Virus record (IMG/VR): IMGVR_UViG_3300028534_000019
Coordinates: 31,091 to 95,090 of that record
Reading direction: 5' to 3' (one strand)
Length of the DNA stretch: 64,000 nucleotides
Source: a virus
Taxonomy: Duplodnaviria > Heunggongvirae > Uroviricota > Caudoviricetes
Of this stretch, positions 16,602 through 56,353 are shown one piece after another. The notes under the pieces were generated by a model that saw only the letters and a program-made list of their open reading frames with translations, was not told where the DNA came from and ran no database searches. The position numbers and the translations under genes are program-made. Each line of letters begins with the position of its first letter. The stretch's first letter is position 1.

Positions 16602-17051
16602 ATGATATATTCAAATAATAAAAAAGTAAAACACGACTATGAAATAATTGAAACATTTGAGGCAGGTGTTGTTTTGAGCGGTCCGCAAGTAAAATCAATT
16701 AGAAAAGGTTCTTTAAGCCTTAAAGGTTCTTATGTTAGTCTTGATGATGGTGTTTTATCATTAAAACAATACTCACTTGCTAGACCTGATTATTTGGATG
16801 CTTTTAGTTCTTTTGATGATAAACCAATAAAATTTTTACTCAAAAAAAGAGAGATTAAAAAATTACAAAAAAAGATTCAAGAAAAAGGTTTAACATTATC
16901 TATAACAAAAGTTTATCAACCTGAAAATACTAGATTTATTAAGGCTGAGTTAGTTCTTGTGAGAGGTAAAAAACTATATGATAAAAGAGAAGATTTAAAA
17001 AAGAAAACACAAGAAATGGATATGAAAAAGGCTATAAAATATGATAGATAA
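16602..17051 (+). CDS. smpB: SmpB (tmRNA-binding protein)
   Basis: NNKKVKHDYEIIETFEAGVVLSGPQVKSIRKGSLSLKGSYV matches the conserved SmpB N-terminal block (NKKA.HDY.I...EAGI.L.G.EVKS.R). Size is 149 aa with a basic C-terminal tail. Confidence 0.9.
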   Translation: MIYSNNKKVKHDYEIIETFEAGVVLSGPQVKSIRKGSLSLKGSYVSLDDGVLSLKQYSLARPDYLDAFSSFDDKPIKFLLKKREIKKLQKKIQEKGLTLSITKVYQPENTRFIKAELVLVRGKKLYDKREDLKKKTQEMDMKKAIKYDR

Positions 17052-18639: not shown

Positions 18640-20490
18640 ATGGCAGTTATTGGTATAGATTTAGGAACGACAAATAGTGCTGTTTCAGTTTATGAAGTAG
18701 GGGAATTTAAAATTATTCCTAATGCTGAGGGTAAAAATACAACACCTAGTATTGTAGCATTTACAGATAAAGGGGATGTATTAGTAGGGGAATCAGCAAA
18801 AAGACAAGCAGTCACAAACCCTGAAAAAACTATTGAAGCAATTAAAAGAATTATGGGTATGCAATTTAATGAACCTAGATGTAAAGAGGCTCAAGAAAAA
18901 GTACAATATAAAATTGTAGATAAAAATGGTTTGGCCGCTGTTGATGTTGATGGTAAGATTTATACACCACAAGAAATTTCAGCTAAAATCCTTACAAAAC
19001 TAAAAGATGATGCAGAAGCATTTATTGGTAAAGAAGTTACAGATGCTGTAATTACAGTTCCAGCATACTTTAATGATGCTCAGAGAAAGGCGACACAAGA
19101 GGCAGGCGTTATTGCAGGGCTTAATGTACTAAGAATTATTAATGAACCTACTTCGGCCGCTCTTGCTTATGGTTTGGACAAAAAAGGTGAGGAAAATATT
19201 CTTGTTTATGATTTTGGTGGTGGTACTTTTGATGTATCTGTATTAGAAATTGGAGATGGTACTTTTGAAGTTCTTTCAACTGATGGTAATGCTTTCTTAG
19301 GTGGTAAAGACTTTGACCAAATTTTAGTTAATTATATTGCTGAATATTTTAAAGAGAAACAGGGTGTTGATTTAAGAAATGATAAAATGGCACTTCAAAG
19401 ATTATATGATGCTTCAGAAAATGCTAAAAAAGAGTTATCAAGTGTTGTAGAAACTGAAATTAACTTACCATTTATTACTATGACAGAAGCCGGCCCGCAG
19501 CATCTTGTTTTAAAAATTTCAAGAGGTAAATTTGAGGGGTTAGTACAAAATCTTGTAGATGAAACTATTGAACATATTACAACAGCATTACAAGACGCTG
19601 GTTTAAGTGTAGATGATATTAGTGAATTGATTATGGTTGGTGGCTCAACAAGAATACCTTTAGTACAAGAGGCAGTTTCAAAGTATTTTAAAGGTAAAAC
19701 TCTTAATAAATCTGTTAATCCTGATGAAGTTGTAGCCGCTGGTGCTTCAATTCAAGGTGGTGTATTAACAGGAGATGTAAAAGATGTTCTTCTTCTTGAT
19801 GTTACACCATTATCACTTGGTATTGAAACTATGGGTGGTATTGCTACTAAAATCATCCCAAAAGGTACAACTATTCCTGTTAAAAAATCAGAAATCTTTA
19901 GTACAGCAGTTGATAATCAACCAGCAGTTAGTATTGTAGTAGTACAAGGTGAAGCAAAATTAGCAGAAGATAATAAATCTTTAGGACAATTTAATCTTGA
20001 GGGTATAACACCAGCTAAAAAAGGTGTACCACAAATTGAAGTTAATTTTGATGTTGATTCTAATGGTGTTTTGAGTGTATCAGCTATTGATAAAGGAACA
20101 GGTAAAGAACAGAAAATAACAATTACAGGTTCGACAGGTTTAAGTGAAGAAGAAATTAGAAAGATGATTGATGATGCTGAAAAACAAAATCAAGAAAAGG
20201 CTGAAAAAATTAAAGCAATTGAAGCAAAAAATGAATTGGATGCTACTCTTTCAAGAATTAAAAACTTTAATGATGAAGAAAAAAATGAAGTGCTATCAGC
20301 TAAAATTTCTGATGTTGAAGAATATGTAAAAGAAGATAGAACAGCAGAAGAAATTAGAAAAATTAGAGATGAACTTGAAGAAGTTTATTTAAAAGCATTT
20401 GAAGAGAAATCAAAAAGAAATGAAGGTGCTGAGGTAAAAGAAAGCACTGAAAATAATGATGATGTTATTGATGCTGAAATTGAAGAATAA
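18640..20490 (+). CDS. dnaK: Hsp70 chaperone DnaK (canonical bacterial type)
   Basis: [69 protein letters not shown], and an acidic tail [10 protein letters not shown]. Confidence 0.95.
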
Positions 20491-43497: not shown

Positions 43498-43989
43498 GTG
43501 AAAAAATATGATAATGTGTTAATGATTAATGCTAAATCTTGGGCAAAACAGAGTTACTGTAATAGAAAAAAAGTAGGTGCTGTTTTAGCCAAAGATGGTA
43601 GGATTTTAGCAACAGGTTATAATGGTACTATCTCAGGTACTGAAAATTGTTGTGAAGAAAAATGTGATGTTTGTAATGGTACAGGTAGGTCATATTTAGA
43701 TGATGAAGAATATTGTCCTAGATGTAATGGTGGTGGTAAAATTACAAATGATTTTACATTACACGCTGAACAAAATATAATTACATTTTGTGCTAAAGAA
43801 GGAATACCAACAAAAGATACTACGATTTACATTACTCTAAGCCCTTGTAAAACTTGTGCTAAATTAATTGCTCAAAGTGGTATTAAAAGAGTTGTGTATA
43901 ATGAACAATATAGAGATACATCAGGTGTTGATTTTCTTAAAAATCTTGGAATACAATGTGAACAACATAATACAAAAGGAAAAGAATGA
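43498..43989 (+). CDS. dCMP deaminase (ComEB/Cd family) with an extra Cys-rich insert
   Basis: GYNG...HAEQNII (HAE) and LSPCKTCAKLI (PCxxC). The insert is CCEEKCDVCNGTGRSYLDDEEYCPRCNGGGK. GTG start. Confidence 0.85.
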   Translation: MKKYDNVLMINAKSWAKQSYCNRKKVGAVLAKDGRILATGYNGTISGTENCCEEKCDVCNGTGRSYLDDEEYCPRCNGGGKITNDFTLHAEQNIITFCAKEGIPTKDTTIYITLSPCKTCAKLIAQSGIKRVVYNEQYRDTSGVDFLKNLGIQCEQHNTKGKE

Positions 43990-44579
43990 AAAAAACATTA
44001 ACAGGTACTAGTTTAGCTGGTGGAAGTGTAAATTATGATAGAGTAGAAAATGATTTTTATGCTACTGATAAGAATAGTACTAGAGGTTTATTGGATATAC
44101 ATAATATAGAATCTGATAGTTTTTATGAACCTTGTGTTGGTCAAGGGCATATAGTTGAAGTTCTTAAAGAATATTTTCCAAATGCTGAATATACTTATAG
44201 TGATTTAGTTGATAGAGGTTATGAAAATACACAAATTTTTGATTATCTAAATACTGAAACAGATATTAAAGCAGATTGGATAATCACTAATCCACCTTAT
44301 AAATTAGCAAAAGAATTTATTTCAAAAAGTTTAACACAAGCTAATAAAGGTGTGGCAATGTTTCTTAAAATCCAATTTTTAGAAGGACAAGCTAGAAAAG
44401 AATGGTTTAAAAACACACCATTAAAATATGTATATGTTTTTAGTAAAAGACAAGACCCTTTAAGAGATGGAATGGAATTAAATCCAAAAACAGGTAAAAA
44501 ATGGGGTAGCACTATGTGTTTTGCTTGGTTTGTATGGGAGATTGGATATGAGGGTGAACCAATTATTAGGTGGATATAA
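43986..44579 (+). CDS. DNA methyltransferase (NPPY motif; probably N6-adenine), no adjacent endonuclease seen
   Basis: Motif I-like YEPCVGQGHIV and motif IV DWIITNPPY. Confidence 0.7.
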   Translation: MKKTLTGTSLAGGSVNYDRVENDFYATDKNSTRGLLDIHNIESDSFYEPCVGQGHIVEVLKEYFPNAEYTYSDLVDRGYENTQIFDYLNTETDIKADWIITNPPYKLAKEFISKSLTQANKGVAMFLKIQFLEGQARKEWFKNTPLKYVYVFSKRQDPLRDGMELNPKTGKKWGSTMCFAWFVWEIGYEGEPIIRWI

Positions 44580-44794
44580 TGACAAATATTCAAAAAATTA
44601 AATTTGATGCTAAATTTAGTGTTTCATATATGAATGGAAAATATGTTATTTCAGGTTTTAATCATACTTATTCTTTACATATAAAAGATAGATGTGATGA
44701 ATTAAATTATTTCATTGAAGATTATGAATTATGGAATTTAAGAGAAAAAGAATGGGAAGACCTTGTAAATACAATTAAGAAAGAGGGATTTTAA
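44579..44794 (+). CDS. Hypothetical protein
   Basis: The ATG at 44579 overlaps the methyltransferase stop (TAATG) and is preferred to the GTG at 44570. Confidence 0.45.
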   Translation: MTNIQKIKFDAKFSVSYMNGKYVISGFNHTYSLHIKDRCDELNYFIEDYELWNLREKEWEDLVNTIKKEGF

Positions 44795-45411
44795 ATCTCT
44801 CCTGATTGTATTTTACTTAATAAACTAGCTGTATCGCCAATAAAATTATTCTGAATATTAACAGTTTTTTCATCATTTTGTTTTTCTAATTCATAAGCAT
44901 TTAAAAATTTCTTAACTTTAAGTTGTGTTTCAGCAACAGTAGAATAACTATCCATCAATAACTTCATACTTGTAACATTACCTTTTTTAAGTTCAGCATA
45001 TGCCATTAAAACACTACCTGAAACCTCTTCAGAGTGTGATACAGCTAAATCCTTACCTAACTTAGATAAAATCTCTTTCGTCGTCTGTATATCTTCTCTT
45101 AGTGCTTGTTTAACTATATCAAAATCAGTTAATAATTCATCACTCTTTACAATACTTGCTAATGTATCACTATCATTTAAAACAGGAACTTGTTTTATTT
45201 TCTCATCTATTTCTTGTTTTCTTTTTTTAAGATTATCTTCAAGACCATCAGCCTCTAATTCAAAAGCGTCTAACAAACCTAAAAATTTATTTGCTTCTTC
45301 TAATTCTTTAGAAACCTTTTCATTTACATCTTCTATAATTTCTATTTCATCAGTATTATCAGTTGATTTATTTTCTGTAAAATCTATATTATTTTCTTCT
45401 ATATTAGACAT
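44791..45411 (-). CDS. Hypothetical acidic protein (last gene of the minus-strand tail operon)
   Basis: 206-codon ORF downstream of the gp15-like gene. Convergent with the plus-strand genes. Confidence 0.6.
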   Translation of the reverse strand: MSNIEENNIDFTENKSTDNTDEIEIIEDVNEKVSKELEEANKFLGLLDAFELEADGLEDNLKKRKQEIDEKIKQVPVLNDSDTLASIVKSDELLTDFDIVKQALREDIQTTKEILSKLGKDLAVSHSEEVSGSVLMAYAELKKGNVTSMKLLMDSYSTVAETQLKVKKFLNAYELEKQNDEKTVNIQNNFIGDTASLLSKIQSGEI

Positions 45412-45434
45412 TTAAAACCTTTTTTATTATTTTT

Positions 45435-46223
45435 TTATTCATTTGGATGTGTTATAGTTGTTTTAGCATTATCTATGTTATAATCATCTTCATCTACTTG
45501 TTTTGAATTAATAAAACCTGATAATTCCTCTATCTCATATACTTCACTTTTGTAATTTATTTCAGTTGTAACAGCAGTAGTATAAATTTCAACCTCTTTA
45601 ATAATGTGTGCTTCTTTTATAGGTAAGTATAAATTACCCTTAACAGTTATCGGTACTGAAATTTCAACAAGATATATTTCATCATCATTTGGTTCAGGTA
45701 ATTCAATATCAAAATCACCTAATTGTACTTGTATAGATGTAGGTTCTTCTTGTATATCTAATTCATTAATTTTTAATGTGTAATCAGGTCTAAATAATGG
45801 TGCTATCTGTTCAATGATTATAGTAGCATCAGAAAATGTTTTTGTAGCAATATGTAAAGTAAATTCAAAATCATAAGCAACAGAATTTTTATGAAATAAT
45901 CTTGTAATATCTTCTTTACTTAAATTATCTTTTGATGTTCTGTTTACAATAGAATTTTTATTTGTATTTCTATTTAATGCTTTATTTAAGCCATTAAATT
46001 CTAAAGCCATTCTTGGTAATACATTAACATTACCATTATTAATATTTTCTATATCATAATCACTCAACATAAAAGCAATATTTCTATTCCCAAATTTTAT
46101 AGGTACTTTTGTATCTGAAATTCTTTTACCTGTATTATCAAATCTTGGTACACTAATATCATTAAATAAATCTATCAAAGCAATAGTATAATTTTTAGTT
46201 GAGTTGTGGTAAAAGTAGTTCAT
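45435..46223 (-). CDS. 15: Tail sheath stabiliser / tail completion protein (T4 gp15-like)
   Basis: MNYFYHNSTKNYTIALIDLFNDISVPRF...KVPIKFGNRN...VLPRMALEF parallels T4 gp15 MFGYFYNSSFRRYATLMGDLFSNIQIKR...RVPITYASKE...ILPRINLHL, from memory. Confidence 0.7.
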   Translation of the reverse strand: MNYFYHNSTKNYTIALIDLFNDISVPRFDNTGKRISDTKVPIKFGNRNIAFMLSDYDIENINNGNVNVLPRMALEFNGLNKALNRNTNKNSIVNRTSKDNLSKEDITRLFHKNSVAYDFEFTLHIATKTFSDATIIIEQIAPLFRPDYTLKINELDIQEEPTSIQVQLGDFDIELPEPNDDEIYLVEISVPITVKGNLYLPIKEAHIIKEVEIYTTAVTTEINYKSEVYEIEELSGFINSKQVDEDDYNIDNAKTTITHPNE

Positions 46224-46259
46224 AATTTTCCTTGTTAAAATATGTTATTTTATATTAAT

Positions 46260-46283
46260 ATTCTTAGGAAAAATCCTAAGAAT
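46260..46283 (-). terminator. Hairpin between the tube and gp15-like genes (attenuator/terminator candidate)
   Basis: ATTCTTAGGA / TCCTAAGAAT form a 10-bp perfect stem with a 4-nt loop. Confidence 0.45.
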
Positions 46284-46289
46284 AATTTT

Positions 46290-46814
46290 TTACATTTTAA
46301 TCCAGTGAGTAAATGCAAAATCAACAGTAAACTCAGTTACCATATCATTACTTTCATCAGCCATATCAATAGAACTGATATTAGTCGGCCAAAGGTTTCT
46401 AAATTGATAAGTAAGTTTTACACTATTATCTCTTGTATCTAATTGTTGAATTTGTGCTGTTTCAGTCATATAAGAAGCATTAGTAGTAACTTTTCTTTTA
46501 TGATTTTCCATATCATCAATAAATACCAACCAATCATCAAATAATTTTCTTAATTCGTGGTCTTGTGTGTTGTAAAATGTTAAAGACCAAGTATTTTCAT
46601 AAGCCGCATCACCTGCAATTATAAGTTTTCTACCTTGTGTCCAAACCTCAATTTGCCCAATAGATTTAGCTGGTATCGGCCCGCCCTTACAAAGAGTATC
46701 TATCTTTTTATCATCTTTTGGTCCGACAGGAGCCGCCAACATAACTCTATATTTATTTGCTCTTGCACCTAAACCAAGAGTACTTTTTAATTCTTGTACT
46801 TTACTAGAAGCCAT
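46290..46814 (-). CDS. 19: Tail tube protein (T4 gp19-like), paralogue 1
   Basis: GARANKYRV, FDDWLVF and NLWPTNISSIDMADESNDMVTEFTVDFAFTHW parallel T4 gp19 ...GLWPTNVGELQLDWDSNNEIQTFEVTLALDYWE. Confidence 0.85.
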   Translation of the reverse strand: MASSKVQELKSTLGLGARANKYRVMLAAPVGPKDDKKIDTLCKGGPIPAKSIGQIEVWTQGRKLIIAGDAAYENTWSLTFYNTQDHELRKLFDDWLVFIDDMENHKRKVTTNASYMTETAQIQQLDTRDNSVKLTYQFRNLWPTNISSIDMADESNDMVTEFTVDFAFTHWIKM

Positions 46815-46864
46815 AACTTCCTCCTTTTTTTAATCTTAATACAAAATTTGTACTAATTCTTATT

Positions 46865-46872
46865 TATTTATA
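46865..46872 (-). promoter_or_regulatory. T4-type late promoter box TATAAATA (minus strand)
   Basis: The plus strand reads TATTTATA, 51 nt upstream of the tube paralogue 1 ATG. AAAGGAGG RBS. Confidence 0.4.
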
Positions 46873-46886
46873 TATGGTATTTTTTA

Positions 46887-47399
46887 TCAATCCCAATGTG
46901 AATAATTAAATGTAACAGTAAACTCTAACAACCCTTCTGTATCATCACTATAAGTAGATTCAGATAATGCTTTAGGATATAAATCATATATTGTATATGT
47001 AGCCATTGGTGAGTTATCTTTTGTGCTTAATTGTTGTAAAACAGCATCAGTCATATAACTTGGTGCTGATGAAGCACTTCTATTATTTGTATTAAAATCA
47101 TCTATAAAATTCATCCAAGCTAAAAATGCTTTTCTTAATGTATGCTGTTCTGTATCAACAAATGTTAAATCCCAAGTTCCTGTAAAAAGTGTTTCACCAG
47201 CGATAGTTAATTTTTTACCTTGTACATATACTTCTACATCAGCAAATTCTTTACCAGGAATATTAGCACCTTTAACTAATGTATTAACTATATTATTACC
47301 CGGCCCGCCACCTTTTGAATTAAGAATTAGTTTATATCTATTTGACCTAGCACCTATACCAAGTGTATTTTTTAGATTTTGAATTGTACTATTTGCCAT
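46887..47399 (-). CDS. 19: Tail tube protein (gp19-like), paralogue 2
   Basis: Clearly alignable to paralogue 1 (MANSTIQNLKNTLGIGARSNRYKL..., ...DLYPKALSESTYSDDTEGLLEFTVTFNYSHWD). Confidence 0.85.
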   Translation of the reverse strand: MANSTIQNLKNTLGIGARSNRYKLILNSKGGGPGNNIVNTLVKGANIPGKEFADVEVYVQGKKLTIAGETLFTGTWDLTFVDTEQHTLRKAFLAWMNFIDDFNTNNRSASSAPSYMTDAVLQQLSTKDNSPMATYTIYDLYPKALSESTYSDDTEGLLEFTVTFNYSHWD

Positions 47400-47410
47400 T
47401 ATATATCCTT

Positions 47411-47923
47411 TTAAAATGTTTCAATATATGATGCTTTGGCTGTTATACTAAATTCAGCTATTGAAGCACCAGCACTATTATCTAAAGTCGGCCCGCCTAC
47501 TGTAACTAAAATACAATCTTTGAATTTAATAATATCTTGAAAGGTATTAATATCAAAGTCAGTGGCAGTTTGAACTAATATATCAAACCTTTGGTTTTTA
47601 GGGTATTCTCTTGAAAATTTTTGTGAAGCACTTGACCACATTCTATATAGTGTAAAATTTTCTAAATCTTTCATAGTAACAGTAACTTGAAAATTTTCTA
47701 ATCTACCCACTGCAAATCTCCATTCCTCAGCTACCCATTCCTCAATAGGTGATGAATTAACCTCAGCTAACTGTATATTAGTTATAGCGGCCGTCAGTGT
47801 ATCAGGGTCAACTGTAATAGCACCAGCGGCTGTTCCACCTGTTGGTAATATCATAACCTTAAATTTAGAGGGGTCTTGCCATCTAATAGACTTAGCAAGT
47901 TGTATAGGTGCTGATAAAGCCAT
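47411..47923 (-). CDS. Divergent tail-tube-fold protein, paralogue 3 (tube or tube-initiator-like)
   Basis: Same size and position as the tube genes. Starts MALSAP..., using the third in-frame ATG, which is preceded by GGAG. Shares a weak FKV...W...F.VTV pattern. Confidence 0.5.
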   Translation of the reverse strand: MALSAPIQLAKSIRWQDPSKFKVMILPTGGTAAGAITVDPDTLTAAITNIQLAEVNSSPIEEWVAEEWRFAVGRLENFQVTVTMKDLENFTLYRMWSSASQKFSREYPKNQRFDILVQTATDFDINTFQDIIKFKDCILVTVGGPTLDNSAGASIAEFSITAKASYIETF

Positions 47924-47937
47924 AAGCATCTCCATAT

Positions 47938-47955
47938 TTTATAAATATTTATAAA
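47938..47955. promoter_or_regulatory. Perfect 18-bp palindrome carrying TATAAATA on both strands (bidirectional late promoter candidate)
   Basis: TTTATAAATATTTATAAA is its own reverse complement. The plus-strand box is 47940-47947 and the minus-strand box is 47946-47953. It lies between divergent tail genes. Confidence 0.55.
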
Positions 47956-47964
47956 AGGAAAACA

Positions 47965-48654
47965 ATGGCTTTAGTATATAAAGAAGAATATAAAAATATA
48001 GCTAAAATAGGTGGTAAAGAAATTCATTTTAAACCGTGGAATACAAAAAATGAAAAAGAATTTTTAATTGCTGTTGAATCTGATGAAGATATTACAGATT
48101 CAATGCTATATGAATTATTAGTTAAACCTTGTATAAAAGAACAAGATATTGTACTTGATGAATACGAACAAAAATTACTTATGATTGAAATGAGGAAAAA
48201 ATCTATTGGTAGTACTTTCCCATTGAGTTACAAATGTTCTAATTGTAAAAATCTTAATGAGATTGAAGTAGAATTAGATGATATTATTAAATATAATGAA
48301 CCAAAATATGATGAGGTTACCGTAGAAGATATAACTATATCTTTTGGAGTTCCAAGAACTGAAAAATTAATCAAAAGACTTGATGAAGTTGATACAAAAG
48401 TAGAAAAAACTTTTTATAATTTTTTAATACATATAAACTATATTATTATTGATGGTGTTAAAGAAGATACATTTAGTTTTGAGGAGTTAAAAGATTATAT
48501 TGAAAGTTTACCAACATCTATTTTTGATGAATTTTATGAAAAATATAGTGCTATGAGTCCTAATTTAAGGTTTGAGTTAGACCAATATTGTATGTTTTGT
48601 AATGAGAAAAATCAGATTAATCTTGAAGGAATCCCAAATTTTTTATGGGCATAA
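47965..48654 (+). CDS. 26: Baseplate hub assembly protein (T4 gp26-like) with zinc ribbon, paralogue 1
   Basis: HFKPWNTKNEKEFL...LLMIEMRKKSIGS...YKCSNCKN...CMFCNEKN, ending IPNFLWA. This resembles the T4_baseplate (gp26) pattern from memory. Confidence 0.5.
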   Translation: MALVYKEEYKNIAKIGGKEIHFKPWNTKNEKEFLIAVESDEDITDSMLYELLVKPCIKEQDIVLDEYEQKLLMIEMRKKSIGSTFPLSYKCSNCKNLNEIEVELDDIIKYNEPKYDEVTVEDITISFGVPRTEKLIKRLDEVDTKVEKTFYNFLIHINYIIIDGVKEDTFSFEELKDYIESLPTSIFDEFYEKYSAMSPNLRFELDQYCMFCNEKNQINLEGIPNFLWA

Positions 48655-48819
48655 TGGTAGAGTCATCTTTACTAAGTATATACCAATTTTACTCTAATAT
48701 GAAATTTTTTGGAAATTATTCTATTCCTGAGGTTGATGAAATGTTGCCTTTTGAAAGAGATATTTTTTACTCTTTATTAGTTAAACTTAAAGAAGAACAA
48801 AATAAAGTTGGTATGTAAA
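48655..48819 (+). CDS. 54-aa hypothetical protein (below the ORF-track cutoff; in frame with the upstream gene)
   Basis: MVESSLLSIYQFYSNMKFFGNYSIPEVDEMLPFERDIFYSLLVKLKEEQNKVGM*. The ATG directly follows the TAA of the previous gene, in the same frame. Confidence 0.4.
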
Positions 48820-48822
48820 AAT

Positions 48823-48844
48823 TAAGTATTTTTTAGATATAATA
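48823..48844 (+). promoter_or_regulatory. Promoter candidate (TTAAGT-N10-TATAAT)
   Basis: AAAATTAAGTATTTTTTAGATATAAT. Confidence 0.5.
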
Positions 48845-48916
48845 TATTTAATTTAAAGAATAAAGAACCATTATGTCATTAAAGACTCAATGATAAATAT
48901 AAACAAAAGGAAAATT

Positions 48917-49618
48917 ATGGCTTTACAATATAAGCAATCGTATAATAATATCTCTAAAATAGGAGATAAAGAAATTCATTTTAGACCTTGGAGTGCTAAA
49001 GATGAAAGACTTTATTTGAAGTTAATTGAAAAAACTGAAAATATAACAGAAGAAGATTTTTATAACACTTTAATAAAACCTTGTATAGAAGAAAAAGATT
49101 TAGTTTTAAGTCAAGCAGAACAAAAGAAACTATTACTAGATATTAGAATTAAATCAATTTCTGAATTTATTGAAGATGATATTGTATGTGAAGAATGTGA
49201 AGAAATCACTAAAATCAAAGTTAAAATAGAAGACTGTTTAACTTATATACCAAATACATTTAAACCAATTAAAATAGATGATATAGAGATTGAATTTGAT
49301 AAACCAAAAACAATGAAAGATTATTTTAATGTAACTGAGGGTGAAAGTGTCGTAGATTATATCTATGATATGTTTTTGCTACATATAAGTAAAATAAAAA
49401 TGGTTAGTGAAGATGGTGAAAAAGTTTATGATGATATTTCTATTCAAGATAAAGAAGATTTTATAAATTCATTACCTAGTAAGATGTTTGATGAATTTTT
49501 TGAAAAATTTCAAGAAATGCTAGATGAAACAAAAATAACCTATAAGTTTACTTGTCCTAAATGTAAACACAAACAAGAAACAGACTACAATTTTATACCT
49601 AACCTTCTTTGGGTATAA
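48917..49618 (+). CDS. 26: gp26-like hub assembly protein, paralogue 2
   Basis: MALQYKQSYNNISKIGDKEIHFRPWSAKDERLYL... is alignable to 47965-48654. Cys pairs CEECEE / CPKCKH, ending IPNLLWV. The ATG at 48917 (RBS AAAGGA) is preferred to 48890. Confidence 0.5.
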   Translation: MALQYKQSYNNISKIGDKEIHFRPWSAKDERLYLKLIEKTENITEEDFYNTLIKPCIEEKDLVLSQAEQKKLLLDIRIKSISEFIEDDIVCEECEEITKIKVKIEDCLTYIPNTFKPIKIDDIEIEFDKPKTMKDYFNVTEGESVVDYIYDMFLLHISKIKMVSEDGEKVYDDISIQDKEDFINSLPSKMFDEFFEKFQEMLDETKITYKFTCPKCKHKQETDYNFIPNLLWV

Positions 49619-49654
49619 AATAAACTATAAAATCTCTTACTATATTAAGTTATC

Positions 49655-49662
49655 TATAAATA
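49655..49662 (+). promoter_or_regulatory. T4-type late promoter box TATAAATA
   Basis: CTATAAATACTTTTAA lies 31 nt upstream of the tape measure ATG. The same 16-mer occurs at 62436-62451. Confidence 0.5.
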
Positions 49663-49692
49663 CTTTTAAGATAAAAATAGTCAGGAGATTTT

Positions 49693-52600
49693 ATGAGTGC
49701 TAACAAAAGAACTAATAAAAGAAAAACTTTTAAAAAACCTACATTAATAACTTTACCAAAAATAAAAGGTAGTGATTATAGAAATAAAGATAATTATGAA
49801 GAACCTAATGGTTTTAAAGAAAAAAAATCTAAACCATCATCTTTATTTGCTAAAATGGCTCAAGATTTAGCTAAGGTTAAAAAAGAGAATGAAGAATTAA
49901 ATAATAAACTTGAAAAAATTTATGAAGTTCAAAAAAACTCTAATGCTCAGATAATCAAAAACCAACAACAAAGTATAGATATACAGCACGACCAAATGGA
50001 ACAACAAAGAGAGGCTGAATATAAAAAAGAACATTCTTATGCTAAAAAAGTAAAAGAAAAAATAGTTTATATTAAAGAAAAAACTAAAGATTCTTTATCA
50101 AATGCTGGTGGAAAAATCAAGAATGGTTTTAATAAAGTAAAACAGAAAACATCAGGTTTTTTTGATTTTATAAAGAAAGCAGCGGGAATAGCATTATTTT
50201 TAAAACTTTTTTGGCCGGTGATTAAAAAGAAAGTGATACCTTATGTTAAAGATACACTAATACCTCAAATTAAAGATTTTTTAAATAATAAAGTAATACC
50301 ATTTTTTAAAGATACTGTAATACCCGGCTTAGAGAAATTTTTCAAAGATACACTTTGGCCGATGATAAAAAACAATTTTGGTGATATTTTAAAAGGGTTA
50401 GGTATAACAGCATTTTTGTTAAATCCTGTTAAATTTATAACAACAGCAATAAAATTGGCTTTTAAAACTACTTTTTTTGGAATTAAACAAATAGTAAAAT
50501 TATTACCTAAACTAGCAGGTTTTTTAAAATCACCAGCAAAATATTTAGCAACAAAAGGGTTAGATTTAGCTAAACAAGGTGCTACTAAGGTTTCTGATTT
50601 AGCTAAACAAGGTGCTACTAAGGTTTCTGATTTAGCTAAACAAGGTGCTACTAAGGTTTCTGATTTAGCTAGAGATGGAGTTGATGCTGTTTCTGATTTT
50701 ACAAAAAATGATAGTATAAGTGATATGGCTGAAAATGGTTATGATAAATTAAAAGACTCTAAAGGAAGTGGTGGTTTATTAGAAAAAATTAATAAAAAAA
50801 TTGATTCTATGAAAGAAAAAATAACAAAAATTTCAGGGTCTTTGATAGATAAAGGAATTGGTTTAGCTAAAAAATTACCATCAAGTTTTGGTGCCGCACT
50901 GAAAATGTTAAAACCACTAGCAAAACTTATTCCATTTTTAGGAACAGCATTAATGGTGTGGGATGTTATAGATTTATTTTTCCCTAATTTAACAAGTAAA
51001 CTCACAGAATTTTTTAGTTGGAAGAATATTAAAGAAATGGCTTCAAGTATATGGGAAAAAGTTAAAGAAGTATTTGGTAGTGTTTCTAAATGGATAAGTG
51101 ATAAATTTAGTGGTATAATTTCAAGTGTAAGAAAAATGGTAGGTAAATTATTTTTAATGAGTCCTATGACTGCATTGTTACCTGATTCTATTAAGAAAAA
51201 AGTATATAATTTTATTGTAGGAGATGATAAAGAAGCTAAAAAAGAAGAAAAATCTTCAGCTATGTTTAAAAAAGGTTATGCTAATGATGATTGGGGTGAT
51301 AATAGTATAAATGAACAAAAGATTAAAAAAGATTTAAAAACAGGTAAAATTAATATTAAAGATTTAGAAGCATTGTTACAATATGGGAATTTAGATGAAG
51401 ATGAACAAGATAAATTAAAGAAAATAATTTCTTCTAATACTAAAACTAAAAAAACTAAAAAAACTTTAGGTAATGTTTCATCTATTAGTAATACTACTGA
51501 TGTTAAAAAACCTCTAACAAAAGAACAAAAACAAGATAATTATATTAAATCTATGGATGCCCAAATTGGAGCATTTACAAAAACAAGAGATAAAATTAAA
51601 ACAGCACTTGATAATAAAGATTTAAGTCCTAAGAAAAGAAAAGGTTTAGAGAAAGCATTATCTTATTATGATACACTTATCAAGAAGAAACAAGAAAAGA
51701 AACAAAGTTTAGTAAAACATAAAAAACATAAAAAACCTACAAGAACATCAGAATCATCATATATGATGGCTGATGGGAAAGGTGGGAAAGTTCCAATAAC
51801 TAAAGAGCAACACGACAGAATGGATGCCATTCAAAATAAAATTTCTGTTGCTTTTGATGGTGGAAACAGTGAAGAAATAGATAAATTACTTAAAGAACAA
51901 GAAGATTTAAGAGCAACAATAATTAAAGAAGGATTTAAACCTTCACAAAGTATAAGTATTTCTAATACTTCTAGTAGTTCTAGTACAACAAATAATTCTT
52001 TTGGTAATGTTAGTAATGTTAGTAATGTAGGTAATACTTTTTTATCAGCAAAACCTAATACTGCTCAAAGTGTAGCAAATCCAAGTGAGTCTGAAACACC
52101 AAAAACAGATGGTTTTTTTACTTCTCAAATGAAACCTAGTTTTGATACAAAACCAAAAGATGTAAGTACAAGTGGTTTTAATCAATCACAAAGTAATGAT
52201 TTAGATGATAAAGAAAGAAAACAATTAAAAATGGAAAAAATACCTGCTAAAAAAATATTCAAATTAACAGGTAGTGCTTCAAGTGGTGGTTTTGAAAAAA
52301 TGAATAAATCATTACAACATAATGTTAAATTATTTGGTATGGAATATGCTGAAAAAACAGGAGAAAAACTAACTATTAATTCAGCATATAGAAGTGTTAA
52401 ATTACAAAAAAAATTATTTGAAAATAAGAAAAAAGAAGTAAGAAAAAAACACCCTGAATGGTCAGATAGTCAAGTTCTTAGGGAAACAAGAAGATGGGTA
52501 GCACCTCCAGGGAGAAGCGCACACAATTCAGGTTTAGCAATTGATATAGGTTATCAAAATAGAAAATCTCCATCAATGGATAAAGCAGATAGATTAGGTT

Positions 52601-53952
52601 TATTATCAAAATATGGTTTAACAAGGATGTTACCAAACGAGCCTTGGCATATTACACCATCAAGTTTAACAAAAACTGATTTAAAATCAGTTGCTAATGA
52701 AATAGAACAAGATGTAAAAGATGGTAATTTTACAGAAGATAATATTACAAAAGGAGTATATTTAGCTAAAGCAACAGGTTCTACAATATCAGATATGGAT
52801 GAGCCTGAATTACCAAGTACTTTAGCAAATTCTTTAACACAACCTAAAGAACAAAGTATAACTATACCTAATACAAGTAATGTAGCTAATACAAGTAATG
52901 TAGCTAATACAAGTAATGTAGCTAATACAAGTAATGTAGCTAATACAAGTAATGTAGCTAATACAAGTAATGTTAAAAATAAAAAAAATAAGTTTAAAGA
53001 ACTTGTTAAAAAAATTGATGGGTCAATAGTTTATGCTCAAAGAGGATTAAAAGATTTTGGTATAACTTCTCTTAATCCATCAGATATGGGAGAAGCAAAA
53101 AATAGTGGTGGTTTTGTTGGTAATGAGTCATTATATGATAAACAGGATTCTTTATATACTGATATGTTAAAAAGTCAAAAGGCTCAAAATAATATTGTAA
53201 AAGATTCTTATAATGCTTATAGTACAGTGGATGGTGCTATTAAAACTGAAAATGTACCTGATGGGTATGAAATATATACAACAGATGGTGGTGTATCTAC
53301 ATTAATTAAGAAACCTTTAGAAGATAGCAAGAATAATAAACCTATGGCTAAAGAAGTTGTAAAACAAGAACAACAAATACAACATAAACCTATGGCTAAA
53401 GAAGTTGTAAAACAAGAACAAAATCAAAGTGTATATAAAAAAGGGTTGAGTAAATTTGGTAAAATACTATCTAATCCATTTGAAAGTTTAGGTAATGGAA
53501 TAGAAAAAGTTGTTAGTAAAACACAAGATTTTGGTAACAAAGTTAAAGATGTATTAACTGATAATCCTATTGTTAATAAAGAGAAAGAAATAATAGATAA
53601 TGTTAGTGGTAGTATAAGTGGAATTTTTGGTGGAGTTGAGAATCATTTTGATGATATGAGTTCAAAAATTAAAGGTAAAGATAATATTAATTTATTAAAT
53701 GATAATAAATCATATTCTAAAGCACCTTTACAAAAAGCAAAAGTTAAAAAAACTTCAGCACCAAAAATAGATATTGATAATGTAGCCAAAAAACTATTAG
53801 CATCAAATAAAACAGAAACTAAACAAGTAAAAGATGAAAATAAAGCACCTATAATAATTAATCAGTCATCAGGTGGTGTTAGAAATGATGATGTTTCATT
53901 ACACGAAATAAAACCAAAACAAGATATGTTTGGTATTATGGAGATGTTATAA
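49693..53952 (+). CDS. Tail tape measure / tail length determinator (gp29-like role) with an embedded M15 peptidase domain
   Basis: 1419 aa, K/E-rich and helical, with hydrophobic segments near aa 160-270, internal tandem repeats, and a position between the hub chaperones and the baseplate genes. Confidence 0.75.
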   Translation: MSANKRTNKRKTFKKPTLITLPKIKGSDYRNKDNYEEPNGFKEKKSKPSSLFAKMAQDLAKVKKENEELNNKLEKIYEVQKNSNAQIIKNQQQSIDIQHDQMEQQREAEYKKEHSYAKKVKEKIVYIKEKTKDSLSNAGGKIKNGFNKVKQKTSGFFDFIKKAAGIALFLKLFWPVIKKKVIPYVKDTLIPQIKDFLNNKVIPFFKDTVIPGLEKFFKDTLWPMIKNNFGDILKGLGITAFLLNPVKFITTAIKLAFKTTFFGIKQIVKLLPKLAGFLKSPAKYLATKGLDLAKQGATKVSDLAKQGATKVSDLAKQGATKVSDLARDGVDAVSDFTKNDSISDMAENGYDKLKDSKGSGGLLEKINKKIDSMKEKITKISGSLIDKGIGLAKKLPSSFGAALKMLKPLAKLIPFLGTALMVWDVIDLFFPNLTSKLTEFFSWKNIKEMASSIWEKVKEVFGSVSKWISDKFSGIISSVRKMVGKLFLMSPMTALLPDSIKKKVYNFIVGDDKEAKKEEKSSAMFKKGYANDDWGDNSINEQKIKKDLKTGKINIKDLEALLQYGNLDEDEQDKLKKIISSNTKTKKTKKTLGNVSSISNTTDVKKPLTKEQKQDNYIKSMDAQIGAFTKTRDKIKTALDNKDLSPKKRKGLEKALSYYDTLIKKKQEKKQSLVKHKKHKKPTRTSESSYMMADGKGGKVPITKEQHDRMDAIQNKISVAFDGGNSEEIDKLLKEQEDLRATIIKEGFKPSQSISISNTSSSSSTTNNSFGNVSNVSNVGNTFLSAKPNTAQSVANPSESETPKTDGFFTSQMKPSFDTKPKDVSTSGFNQSQSNDLDDKERKQLKMEKIPAKKIFKLTGSASSGGFEKMNKSLQHNVKLFGMEYAEKTGEKLTINSAYRSVKLQKKLFENKKKEVRKKHPEWSDSQVLRETRRWVAPPGRSAHNSGLAIDIGYQNRKSPSMDKADRLGLLSKYGLTRMLPNEPWHITPSSLTKTDLKSVANEIEQDVKDGNFTEDNITKGVYLAKATGSTISDMDEPELPSTLANSLTQPKEQSITIPNTSNVANTSNVANTSNVANTSNVANTSNVANTSNVKNKKNKFKELVKKIDGSIVYAQRGLKDFGITSLNPSDMGEAKNSGGFVGNESLYDKQDSLYTDMLKSQKAQNNIVKDSYNAYSTVDGAIKTENVPDGYEIYTTDGGVSTLIKKPLEDSKNNKPMAKEVVKQEQQIQHKPMAKEVVKQEQNQSVYKKGLSKFGKILSNPFESLGNGIEKVVSKTQDFGNKVKDVLTDNPIVNKEKEIIDNVSGSISGIFGGVENHFDDMSSKIKGKDNINLLNDNKSYSKAPLQKAKVKKTSAPKIDIDNVAKKLLASNKTETKQVKDENKAPIIINQSSGGVRNDDVSLHEIKPKQDMFGIMEML
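50563..50661 (+). repeat. Perfect 33-nt tandem repeat x3 inside the tape measure (DLAKQGATKVS)
   Basis: GATTTAGCTAAACAAGGTGCTACTAAGGTTTCT starts at 50563, 50596 and 50629. A degenerate fourth unit follows (DLARDGVDAVS). Confidence 0.95.
52370..52660 (+). other. VanY/M15B-like peptidoglycan peptidase domain within the tape measure
   Basis: INSAYRSVKLQKKLF, WVAPPGRSAHNSGLAIDIGY and NEPWHITP give the SxYRS...PGxSxHxxGxAxD...WH pattern. Confidence 0.7.
52870..52974 (+). repeat. Perfect 18-nt tandem repeat x5 plus a partial sixth unit (NTSNVA) inside the tape measure
   Basis: AATACAAGTAATGTAGCT starts at 52870, 52888, 52906, 52924 and 52942. The sixth unit diverges to ...GTTAAA. Confidence 0.95.
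53338..53421 (+). repeat. 36-nt direct repeat x2 with a 12-nt spacer (KPMAKEVVKQEQ) inside the tape measure
   Basis: AAACCTATGGCTAAAGAAGTTGTAAAACAAGAACAA occurs at 53338-53373 and 53386-53421. Confidence 0.9.
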
Positions 53953-53975
53953 ATAATTTAAAAAGGTATTAATTT

Positions 53976-54686
53976 ATGATTTATCCATTAAATTTATTTA
54001 CACCAGACCCTATAACAAATAGCCTTAGACCATTTATGATGTTCTCAGCAAAAGAAGTCAATTTTAATGCTATGAGGGCTAAATCGTGGTCTGATGCTAA
54101 GGAAACATTATCAACAAAAATGATATTTGCTTTACCTATACCAAATACAGGTATTATGGATTCATTCCAAAATGAATATGGCAGTGAACCATCAGTTGGT
54201 GGTTTACTTGCTCAGAAAGCCCAAGATACTTTTAATGCACTTCCGGGTGCCGCTGGAATTTCATCAGCATCAGCAAGATTAGGCTTTGTTGCCGACCCTA
54301 AATATACTCAACTATACAAAGGTTCTTCACCTAGAAGTTGGAGTGGTACTTGGCAAATTGTTCCTGAATCATTAGGAGAATCACTTGTTGCTCATATGAT
54401 GTTAAGAGCAATTAAATATTGTGCCGCACCTGATAAAAAATCTGATGCTAGTAATAAAATAGGTGTATTAATACAGCCTTATGTTTTTTCAATAACAATT
54501 TCTAATCCTTTAATAGATAGAGCAGTAAAATTTGATAAAATGGTGATGAAATCTTATGATATTACTTATTATGCTCAAGGTTATGCTAGTTCTTATAAAG
54601 ATATGTTTCCAAAACAAATATCTTTATCATTAAAATTTGAAGAATTTGGAATTAAAACTAGAAAAGATTGGGGAAAACCTTTCTAA
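53976..54686 (+). CDS. Tail/baseplate protein (possibly a gp48/gp54-like tube cap or initiator)
   Basis: Positioned directly after the tape measure. FALPIPNTGIMDSFQNEYGSE is a weak resemblance only. Confidence 0.4.
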   Translation: MIYPLNLFTPDPITNSLRPFMMFSAKEVNFNAMRAKSWSDAKETLSTKMIFALPIPNTGIMDSFQNEYGSEPSVGGLLAQKAQDTFNALPGAAGISSASARLGFVADPKYTQLYKGSSPRSWSGTWQIVPESLGESLVAHMMLRAIKYCAAPDKKSDASNKIGVLIQPYVFSITISNPLIDRAVKFDKMVMKSYDITYYAQGYASSYKDMFPKQISLSLKFEEFGIKTRKDWGKPF

Positions 54687-54706: not shown

Positions 54707-55216
54707 ATGAAAAATAAATATTTAGAATTTGATAATATGGATTTTATTGATAACAAACAAGTTAAGAATTTCACAAGGTTATCTTATTTACCTGATTTAC
54801 CTAAAGATTTTTGGGATAATTTTACATTTGATACATATTTAGTTGATGATGATGAATATATAGAAGGTATATCTTGGAGATTATATGAAACTACTGATTA
54901 TTGGGATGTATTAATGTTTCTAAATGGTATAACAAATTTTTATGATTTACCTAAAAATTTCAATGTTGTTGTAGAAAGAACTATGTCAAAAGTTGATAAA
55001 TGGAATCAGTTCTCAAATAAAAAGTTATCAGAAGAAGAAAAAGAGAAAAAATATAAAGAGTTATTAGATAAAGAAAATGAAAAAAATGAAAGATTTAGAC
55101 ATATTAAATATCTTACACCAAGTGGGTTATCTGATTTAGAACATTATTTAGATACATTTAAAGGTAAACCAAAAATATTACCTAACTTAATAATAAATCC
55201 ACCACAAGAAAACTAA
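54707..55216 (+). CDS. Hypothetical baseplate-cluster protein
   Basis: 169-codon ORF within the baseplate operon. Confidence 0.55.
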   Translation: MKNKYLEFDNMDFIDNKQVKNFTRLSYLPDLPKDFWDNFTFDTYLVDDDEYIEGISWRLYETTDYWDVLMFLNGITNFYDLPKNFNVVVERTMSKVDKWNQFSNKKLSEEEKEKKYKELLDKENEKNERFRHIKYLTPSGLSDLEHYLDTFKGKPKILPNLIINPPQEN

Positions 55217-55243: not shown

Positions 55244-56353
55244 ATGGGTTATAATATAGGGGTACAATCAAACCATTTTAAAGAATTTTCTTTAACAATA
55301 GATGGTATTAAGATAGTAGAAGAACAAATAATATCACTTATGATAAATTGGGATATTAATCACTTTAAAATAACAGGTTCTCTTAGTTGGAAAGATGGAA
55401 GTTGTATGGTAGAAGAAACACCGATTAGAGGTGGTAATACAGTAGTAATTAATATGACTGATTTTGATGGGGCTTCATATTCAGGGAACTTTAAAGTCTT
55501 AAATACAAATTATGAAAGAAGCACAGATTTTTATATAAGTACAATATCTTTTATTGATACAGAAAGTTTTAACATTTTAAAACTTTATCCAACAAAGTCT
55601 TGGCTTCAAGCAACTATGGTACAAATAATTGATGATGCCAAGACAGCAAAACCTTTCTTAACTTCAAAAGGTAAAGAATTTAATGACCCTGGTTTAATGC
55701 ACGAGAATTTTGTTGTGCCTCAAAATAAAAACTTTTATTGGACAATAGAGTGGTTAAAACAAAGAAATAATAGGTTAATGTTTCAAAATAGAGAGAAATA
55801 TATTATTGATGATTTTAATACATTAATAAACAAAGGTGTTAAAGGTAAGCCATATTATTTTAAAGCAAATAATGCTTCATATAAAAGAAATGTTTATGAA
55901 TATAGTGTAAAAAATTCAGATTTTATTAAGAATATAGCAACTATGCCAAATGTAGAATTTCCTTATTTTAATGTTGATTACAAACATAAACAACAAACAA
56001 AAGGCTCATATGCAGATGCTTCAGGTGCTATTGGTGGGCAAGGTACATTAAATGATTTTAGTTCAAATGGGGATAAATTTAGTTTTATATCAAATACAAA
56101 TTTTGAAGAAACTAAAGATTTTTATTTTCAGAAAAATGCTTTATCTAACTTAGTTGTAGAAATATTAGTTCCTGGGCAATGTAAAACAAATTTAGGTGAT
56201 GTAGTATGTTTAGAATTTGATAATTTATTTGAGGGAAAAGGTCCGGAAAAGAATATTAAAGGTAAATTTCTAATTGTAGGATTAACAGATATTTTTCAAA
56301 ATCCTGAATATTTACAAAAATTAACATTAGCAAGACCAAAATGGTTTAAATAA
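55244..56353 (+). CDS. Baseplate hub protein (gp27 / gpD-like), tentative
   Basis: Size and position immediately upstream of the gp5-like spike. AAAGGAG RBS. Confidence 0.5.
   Translation: MGYNIGVQSNHFKEFSLTIDGIKIVEEQIISLMINWDINHFKITGSLSWKDGSCMVEETPIRGGNTVVINMTDFDGASYSGNFKVLNTNYERSTDFYISTISFIDTESFNILKLYPTKSWLQATMVQIIDDAKTAKPFLTSKGKEFNDPGLMHENFVVPQNKNFYWTIEWLKQRNNRLMFQNREKYIIDDFNTLINKGVKGKPYYFKANNASYKRNVYEYSVKNSDFIKNIATMPNVEFPYFNVDYKHKQQTKGSYADASGAIGGQGTLNDFSSNGDKFSFISNTNFEETKDFYFQKNALSNLVVEILVPGQCKTNLGDVVCLEFDNLFEGKGPEKNIKGKFLIVGLTDIFQNPEYLQKLTLARPKWFK

Follow-up and report, generated by a model that had tools for sequence, protein, structure and literature searches.

The 64-kb stretch of the IMG/VR virus record IMGVR_UViG_3300028534_000019 analysed here (hereafter the window) carries three tandem genes for proteins of the tail-tube superfamily, which we call A, B and C. 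They are read from the minus strand in that order. Gene A (47411-47923) codes for a tube-fold protein of 170 amino acids (aa) resembling gp54 of phage T4, gene B (46887-47399, 170 aa) starts 11 nucleotides (nt) past A and codes for a gp19-type tail-tube paralogue, and gene C (46290-46814, 174 aa) codes for a gp19-type tail-tube protein. An ATG upstream of A would lengthen its open reading frame (ORF) to 47935, giving a 174-aa form; the public gene calls have the 170-aa form. The initial annotation of this DNA, which gave the coordinates of the three frames exactly and their sizes correctly, read them as three tandem tail-tube-fold genes, and this is borne out for all three products by sequence and profile comparison and for A also by its predicted fold. 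The findings presented below are that B and C are an old pair of gp19 paralogues and that A, which is found next to the baseplate-hub genes wherever it was examined, most likely encodes a putative tube initiator.

The window has 26% GC and nearly all coding sequence is on the plus strand, except for a block of five minus-strand genes at 44791-47935 to which A, B and C belong. Judged from family scans the source phage is a distant T4-like myovirus. A blastn search with 44700-50000 against phage genomes gave no match at the DNA level, and the comparisons were therefore made at the protein level.

Genes B and C

The initial annotation considered B and C to be clearly homologous and gp19-like, and they are. 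The two proteins are 43% identical over 171 aa (E=3e-53) and end in ...FAFTHWIKM (B) and ...FNYSHWD (C), which the end of T4 gp19 (...LDYWE) resembles. Compared to T4 gp19, B gives E=6.1e-5 as a single sequence and E=2.6e-19 as an ortholog profile, and C gives E=7.6e-13 and E=7.8e-14, respectively. The only PDB matches of B and C, whether single sequences or ortholog profiles were used, are T4 gp19 and the Klebsiella KP1 tube protein; neither gp3 nor gp54 is matched in the PDB at E<=1. The Pfam family PF06841 gives 24.9 bits for C and 13.8 bits for B, both under the 28.2-bit Pfam cut-off, and PF23849 (Phage_TTP_2) is listed for both in precomputed annotation. Both also match phrog_45 (E=1e-43 and 5e-36), but T4 gp19, gp54 and gp3 are all members of PHROG 45, so that these matches cannot tell gp19 from gp3 or gp54.

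A word-indexed homolog search with B found 5 proteins only. All-against-all BLAST and a neighbour-joining tree divide the gp19-type sequences of the window and of related metagenomic contigs (L numbers) into two ortholog groups, B-type and C-type. The C-type sequences of the window, L009, L012, L014 and L015 form a clade with 100% bootstrap, and the B-type sequences pair by reciprocal BLAST. Both genes are present in the window, L009, L010/L011, L012, L014 and L015. The C orthologues are 63-71% identical to C of the window, the B-type orthologues 48-54% identical to B of the window, and the A proteins in the same contigs only 52-58% identical to A of the window. That B and C are both kept across contigs whose A proteins have diverged this far indicates that the duplication is old and that both copies are maintained, and the conservation of the order A-B-C in these contigs also speaks for an old duplication. 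The B/C duplication thus predates the divergence of this metagenomic clade. The initial annotation had proposed a phylogeny for dating the duplications; in the tree made here the deep nodes are weak (bootstrap 20-57%) and the links of B and C to the copies in Campylobacter phage CP220 and Vibrio phage Va1 reach 57% at most, so that it does not tell whether the duplications in those phages are the same event as that of B and C. The extra gp19 copy is an old conserved trait of the whole clade and not a recent accident.

Gene A and the baseplate hub

The initial annotation noticed only faint similarity between the product of A and the two other proteins, and at the level of BLASTP this is right: A gives E=7.5 with B and E=0.45 with C, neither of them significant. 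A phmmer search of the PDB with A gave no informative match, and hhalign of a shallow A profile against single T4 gp3 and gp19 sequences was uninformative as well. For this reason a deeper alignment of the A family was needed. An exhaustive profile search with A gave 174 cluster representatives, and a family profile of 113 sequences was built. At this level the homology is real: when aligned with the B/C family by hhalign, the A family reaches a probability of 98.4% (E=7.6e-15, 154 columns).

The initial annotation had also allowed for the third protein being modelled as an unrelated fold. The AlphaFold model of A, made with 44 close homologues that all come from metagenomes, is a tube fold instead (pLDDT 79.3, pTM 0.73). 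With this model every top match in Foldseek is a tail-tube chain, an Hcp chain or a tube chain of an extracellular contractile injection system (eCIS). T4 gp54 is the best fold match, virtually level with gp19, and it is also the closest PDB chain by sequence. The A-family profile matches T4 gp54 with E=2.2e-7 (covering gp54 residues 160-261 only), the KP1 'baseplate subunit' with E=6e-4 and T4 gp19 with E=4.9e-3; no match to T4 gp3 was found with A-family profiles.

The A-family genes adjoin the gp26/51-gp29-gp48 hub module in all cases examined, that is in the window, L007/L008, L009, L010/L011, L012-L015, Va1 and the Campylobacter phage NCTC12673. In the window this baseplate-hub module (47965-54686, plus strand), which was identified by family scans, is divergent from gene A. 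It consists of two gp26/gp51-like genes (PF12322; 47965-48654 and 48890-49618), a gene for a gp29-like tape measure of 1419 aa (49693-53952) and a gene for a gp48-like tube cap (53976-54686), all on the plus strand, and the layout is the same in L009, L010 and L012-L015. It is this genomic context beside the hub module which settles the likely role of A: a small and much diverged protein of the gp19/gp54/gp3 superfamily, it would most likely act as tube initiator.

The specialised roles derived by duplication which the initial annotation considered included both a tube initiator and a tube terminator. An initiator arisen by ancient duplication fits A, with gp54 as best match and linkage to the hub, and that part of the proposal is supported. 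The terminator is a different matter, since a separate gp3 homologue is found in relatives. In L012 a gp3-type homologue of 153 aa (L012:9921-10382, minus strand; E=1.2e-7 to T4 gp3 and 1e-20 to phrog_45) lies downstream of the A-B-C array, where it follows a gene for 1373 aa, and in CP220 the gp3-like gene is gp132. No gp3 homologue was found within the 64-kb window, and A, B and C themselves have no match to gp3. With a separate gp3-type terminator in L012 and CP220, and with B and C matching gp19 only, a terminator role need not be sought among the three.

No Pfam model exists for the A family, which comprises about 170 cluster representatives and which PHROGs 14044 and 25014 list under 'unknown function'. 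Its members, among them Va1_275 and NCTC12673 gp020, can now be read as compact gp54-like tube proteins tied to the baseplate hub.

Promoter motifs, ribosome-binding sites and hairpin

The sequence TATAAATA is the consensus of T4 late promoters. It is found in 20 copies in the window, 11 of which are sense-oriented and at most 80 nt upstream of a gene start, where they concentrate 17-51 nt upstream of the start codons. The copy belonging to A (47946-47953, minus strand) ends 23 nt before the start of A and lies back to back with, and overlaps, a plus-strand copy (47940-47947) which would serve the divergent hub genes. The late-promoter-like copy belonging to C (46865-46872, minus strand) ends 51 nt before the start of C. 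When the loci are compared, A is preceded by the motif in all 7, B in none of 7 and C in 4 of 5 (window, L012, L014, L015). It would seem that A and B share a single late promoter and that C has its own. The ribosome-binding sites in the window are GGAG for A, AAGGA for B and AGGAGG for C, the last located between the promoter motif and the start of C and predicted to be the best of the three. In most loci B starts 9-20 nt past A, and in L007 the two genes overlap by 1 base. A scan of the window for sigma-70 promoters gave 23 matches against 25.4 in shuffled sequences; there being no excess, these matches were ignored.

Directly after C there is a stem-loop (46259-46284) with a perfect stem of 11 bp and a free energy of -14.9 kcal/mol. 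It was called on the plus strand and in the sense direction has no more than a weak U-tract; probably it acts as a terminator or as an mRNA-stabilising element. A perfect hairpin of 11-13 bp follows C in all loci with downstream sequence (window, L009, L012 and L015).

The next gene after C is that of a gp15-like tail-sheath stabiliser/terminator (45435-46223, minus strand, 262 aa; PF16724 E=1.4e-41, phrog_227). The final gene of the minus-strand block, downstream of the gp15-like gene, codes for a 206-aa protein to which no function was assigned (44791-45411, minus strand). The position of this gene is conserved, as proteins of 199-220 aa occupy the equivalent slot downstream of gp15 in L009, L010 and L015.

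The adjacency of A and B is never interrupted, and in L009 foreign genes separate B from C as well as C from gp15. The first of these insertions carries a 658-aa DUF7487 gene (L009:11126-13102, minus strand) and the second a 470-aa DUF723 gene (L009:13839-15251, plus strand), and a NUMOD3 gene is found in the vicinity. They are likely to be mobile or homing-type elements which have entered the tube cluster.

Comparison with known systems

The initial annotation contrasted the array with T4, which has one tube protein and distinct initiator and cap proteins encoded elsewhere. This contrast was overstated, since T4 gp19, gp54 and gp3 are mutually homologous, are placed together in PHROG 45 and belong to the same superfamily as A, B and C. 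What holds is a surplus of one gp19 copy, there being two here and one in T4. The surroundings of the array are T4-like, with gp48-, gp15-, gp26/51-, gp29-, gp5-, gp25- and gp6-like genes. Other differences from T4 concern A and the arrangement of the genes. T4 gp54 has 320 aa with an extra domain and its gene comes directly after gp48, whereas the 170-aa A is encoded beside the tube genes on the opposite strand, upstream of and divergent from the hub module. The tube genes, the putative initiator gene and the gp15-like gene are clustered here and dispersed in T4.

Judged by protein similarity, the cultured phages nearest to the present one include the Campylobacter phages CP220, CPt10 and IBB_35 (Firehammervirus) and NCTC12673 (Fletchervirus); at the DNA level they have no similarity to it. 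CP220 has three gp19-like genes (gp045, gp058 and gp145), which are dispersed and two of which code for proteins of about 250 aa, as opposed to the tandem genes found here. In NCTC12673 the A-family gene gp020 is divergent from the 'baseplate hub' gene gp021, as in the window. Several gp18 and gp19 homologues were described in CP220 and CPt10, and at least two gp19 types are found in mature virions (Timms et al., 2010; PMC2853527). That study left open whether a single CP220 virion contains a mixture of these types or whether each type marks a population of its own. Mass spectrometry of IBB_35 virions detected a gp3 and the proteins of three gp19 genes (Carvalho et al., 2012; PMC3322345).

For C the Vibrio phages of the Va1 group (Va1, phiKT1024, pv27 and phiTY18) outscore the Campylobacter phages and give the best protein match, with 42% identity. 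Va1 has three tandem genes deposited as tail-tube proteins (Va1_260, 261 and 262). All three are gp19-type and two of the copies are about 250 aa, whereas the trio in the window consists of A and two gp19-type genes. The A-family gene of Va1, Va1_275, lies about 7 kb from the tube genes, directly upstream of and co-directional with the hub genes, the tape measure gene and gp48. With the eCIS (Afp1/Afp5/Afp7 and Pvc1/Pvc5/Pvc7), which are not phages, the present proteins share only the fold and no relationship at the sequence level.

Multi-copy tube genes are thus already known in Campylobacter and Vibrio phages, among T4-like phages in the Eucampyvirinae and the Va1 group, and the present array is a further example in compact tandem form. 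What it adds to the known cases is that the A family, so far unannotated, can be given a likely function. In addition A, B and C, each of about 170 aa, offer a clean and compact system for asking what a second tube protein does, a question which has been open since the CP220 proteome of 2010.

Proposed roles of the three proteins

The reading which we favour, and to which we give about even chances of being correct, is that A acts as initiator in the manner of gp54, that C is the main subunit of the tube and that B is a further tube subunit present in fewer copies. These roles are inferred from the evidence given above. From the layout of promoter motifs, ribosome-binding sites and hairpin we would expect C to be the tube subunit made in many copies and the synthesis of B to keep pace with that of the initiator. 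As gp54 does in T4, A would make a hexameric ring at the junction with the baseplate hub, and on this ring the tube would polymerise. C would provide the bulk of the tube: it evolves more slowly, a late promoter of its own precedes it, its ribosome-binding site is the strongest and a hairpin follows the gene. B, made from the same transcript as A, would be the lower-copy subunit and would probably supply one or more initial rings that link the A ring to the polymer of C. The tube would be capped by a gp3-type protein encoded elsewhere together with the adjacent gp15-like protein. We infer from this scheme that all three proteins are present in the virion, with the stoichiometry and the places along the tube just given; B as the proximal ring is put forward tentatively.

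Several observations weigh against this assignment. In the sequence at hand from L007/L008 and L013, A is followed by a B-type gene and no C-type one, and in phages of this kind the B-type protein may be the sole and hence the major tube protein. Both gp19 types of CP220 resolved by sodium dodecyl sulphate polyacrylamide gel electrophoresis (SDS-PAGE) are visible as bands, which suggests paralogues of similar abundance rather than one minor component. With regard to A it should be noted that the hidden Markov model of its family, in a small local database, gives the phage's own B and C 31-34 bits and T4 gp54 26 bits; A could therefore be a lineage-specific diverged gp19 copy and not an orthologue of gp54, and 'gp54-like' is accordingly the best T4 label for A but short of proven orthology. 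A is half the size of gp54 and is not found in the T4 slot of gp54 after gp48. Finally, the motif TATAAATA is short and AT-rich, and the genome has 26% GC.

A more specific proposal is that the tube requires both B and C and is differentiated: B might serve as an adaptor of one or more rings joining a minimal A to the polymer of C, or B and C might alternate or mix. We regard this as doubtful; if true, a tube of several subunits would for the first time be structurally defined in a T4-like phage, and there would be a reason for the several gp19 genes kept by Campylobacter- and Va1-type phages.

The related possibility that B and C co-polymerise throughout the tube in comparable amounts, as mixed hexamers or alternating rings, which corresponds to the heteromeric tube suggested by the initial annotation, is to us somewhat less credible still. 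Both proteins are full-length, gp19-type and under long-term purifying selection, and there are precedents in CP220, where two gp19 paralogues are distinct SDS-PAGE bands of purified virions (PMC2853527), and in IBB_35, where all three gp19 products were detected in virions (PMC3322345). The promoter, ribosome-binding site and hairpin layout and the degree of conservation are, however, unlike between B and C, which points to unequal dosage, and L007/L008 and L013 show a single gp19-type gene beside A. Moreover, the paralogues seen in the CP220 gel are of the type with about 250 aa, and their orthology to B and C has a bootstrap of 57% at most.

It is improbable that A is a terminator or an accessory protein, for example an assembly factor, and that the role of gp54 is filled by the product of a 169-aa ORF (54707-55216, plus strand) located after the gp48-like gene and before a putative equivalent of the gp27 gene. 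The latter gene (55244-56353, plus strand; phrog_350) has the position of gp27, codes for a tail protein of 369 aa and is followed by gp5-, gp25- and gp6-like genes. For such a role it can be said that A shares its strand block with gp15, that the 169-aa ORF occupies the slot which gp54 has after gp48 in T4, and that its family reaches CP220 gp133 (phrog_23074; hhalign 95.9%), which also comes after gp48. The ORF is fast-evolving with only 2 database homologues; its position is kept in L009, L013, L014 and L015, and an AlphaFold prediction from the 2-sequence alignment (pLDDT 41.7) was unusable. A terminator role for A does not agree with the separate gp3 homologue in relatives or with the lack of a match between A profiles and T4 gp3. 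The conserved neighbour of A is the hub module and not gp15, the Va1 copy being found with the hub genes at a distance from the tube genes, and hhalign gave no similarity of the 169-aa family to any tube family.

Least probable of all is that B and C are alternative or redundant subunits, interchangeable across virion sub-populations, hosts or conditions, or with one of them not incorporated: the question left open by Timms et al. (PMC2853527) and the separation of B and C by inserted genes in L009 would allow it, but the retention of two ortholog groups with no pseudogenisation, across contigs as diverged in A as these, is not expected of redundant phage genes.

The tail module contains a second pair of paralogues, the two tandem PF12322 genes of gp26/gp51 type, which are kept in L009, L010 and L012-L015 with a small ORF separating the pair in the relatives. 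They represent a second old duplication within the same module.

The CGGGCCG motif and the codon context of Gly-Pro

The initial annotation pointed out that each of the three tube genes carries one sense-strand CGGGCCG at non-homologous positions. This is correct, and in all three the motif is read in the frame GGC-GGG-CCG. In A (47489-47495, minus strand) it codes for Gly-Gly-Pro at residues 147-149 of the 174-aa ORF form, and the consensus of the A family also has GP at this site. In B (47301-47307, minus strand; residues 31-33) it lies in a GGGP loop which is conserved in most B orthologues. In C (46677-46683, minus strand; residues 44-46) it codes for part of KGGP, where the orthologues have KGGA or KGAS, so that the Gly-Pro is lineage-specific there.

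The motif is nevertheless not a property of the tube paralogues but part of a Gly-Pro codon pattern throughout the window. CGGGCCG is found in 9 copies in the window against 0.01 expected, all 9 of them in the one frame NNC-GGS-CCG (S = G or C), that is Gly-Pro, within the palindrome CGGSCCG. Gly-Pro dipeptides occur 13 times in the window where 26 are expected, and these 13 sites (8816, 10790, 13816, 16680, 17748, 19492, 41233, 46678, 46720, 47302, 47490, 56240 and 57391) are the only GGNCC sites in the 64 kb; 12 of the 13 have the codon string NNC-GGN-CCG, and 11 are the palindrome CGGNCCG. The rare proline codon CCG is used at 12 of the 13 Gly-Pro sites and for 19 of 505 other prolines (Fisher p=3e-15). 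Likewise the codon preceding the glycine ends in C in 12 of 13 cases, compared to 21 of 918 for other glycine codons (Fisher p=5e-18). The tube genes hold 4 of the 13 sites, at least 2 of which are at conserved positions, the GGGP loop of B and a VGP in C. The codon pattern was not seen in the related contigs, CP220, NCTC12673 or Va1.

Avoidance of an RGGNCCY-type restriction site was considered as an explanation of the CGGNCCG flanks and was rejected, as the escaping 5' T or 3' A, which codon usage would favour, is almost never used. GGNCC cannot be removed from Gly-Pro by synonymous changes, and the remaining sites are therefore unavoidable; one possibility is that they are protected in a way that depends on the flanks. 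The C...G flanks could make these sites safe, e.g., by overlapping CpG or CCG methylation. The codon pattern is more unusual than the tube genes, being a lineage-specific and highly significant codon context at every Gly-Pro.

Palindrome avoidance and other features of the window

The phage would seem to be under heavy restriction pressure. CATG, GATC and ACGT are absent from the window, with about 140 of each expected, and TGCA (22), TCGA (10), GCGC (1) and CGCG (0) are strongly depleted. The observed/expected ratio is 0.18 for CpG and 1.03 for GpC. Many of the CpGs that are retained are of the form CACG-N, a CAC histidine codon before a codon starting with G, and look like a by-product of CATG avoidance. 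We take this avoidance profile to resemble restriction repertoires of Helicobacter/Campylobacter-type hosts. A gene for a DNA methyltransferase of 197 aa with a TNPPY motif (43986-44579, plus strand; phrog_799 E=4e-64, no Pfam match) is the only such ORF found by motif search of the window, and a search of the window for C5-methyltransferase motifs found none. This methyltransferase may be relevant to the pattern of site avoidance.

The window also carries a gene for a transfer-messenger RNA (tmRNA; 39452-39772, plus strand) with the tag peptide ANNTDYTGNTVLSA and one for an SmpB protein (16602-17051, plus strand; PF01668 E=1.7e-38), which together make up a complete trans-translation pair in a phage. 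Two genes are Hsp70/DnaK-like, one at 18640-20490 (plus strand; PF00012, 767 bits) and one at 39844-41706 (plus strand), the second being recognisable from the sequence only.

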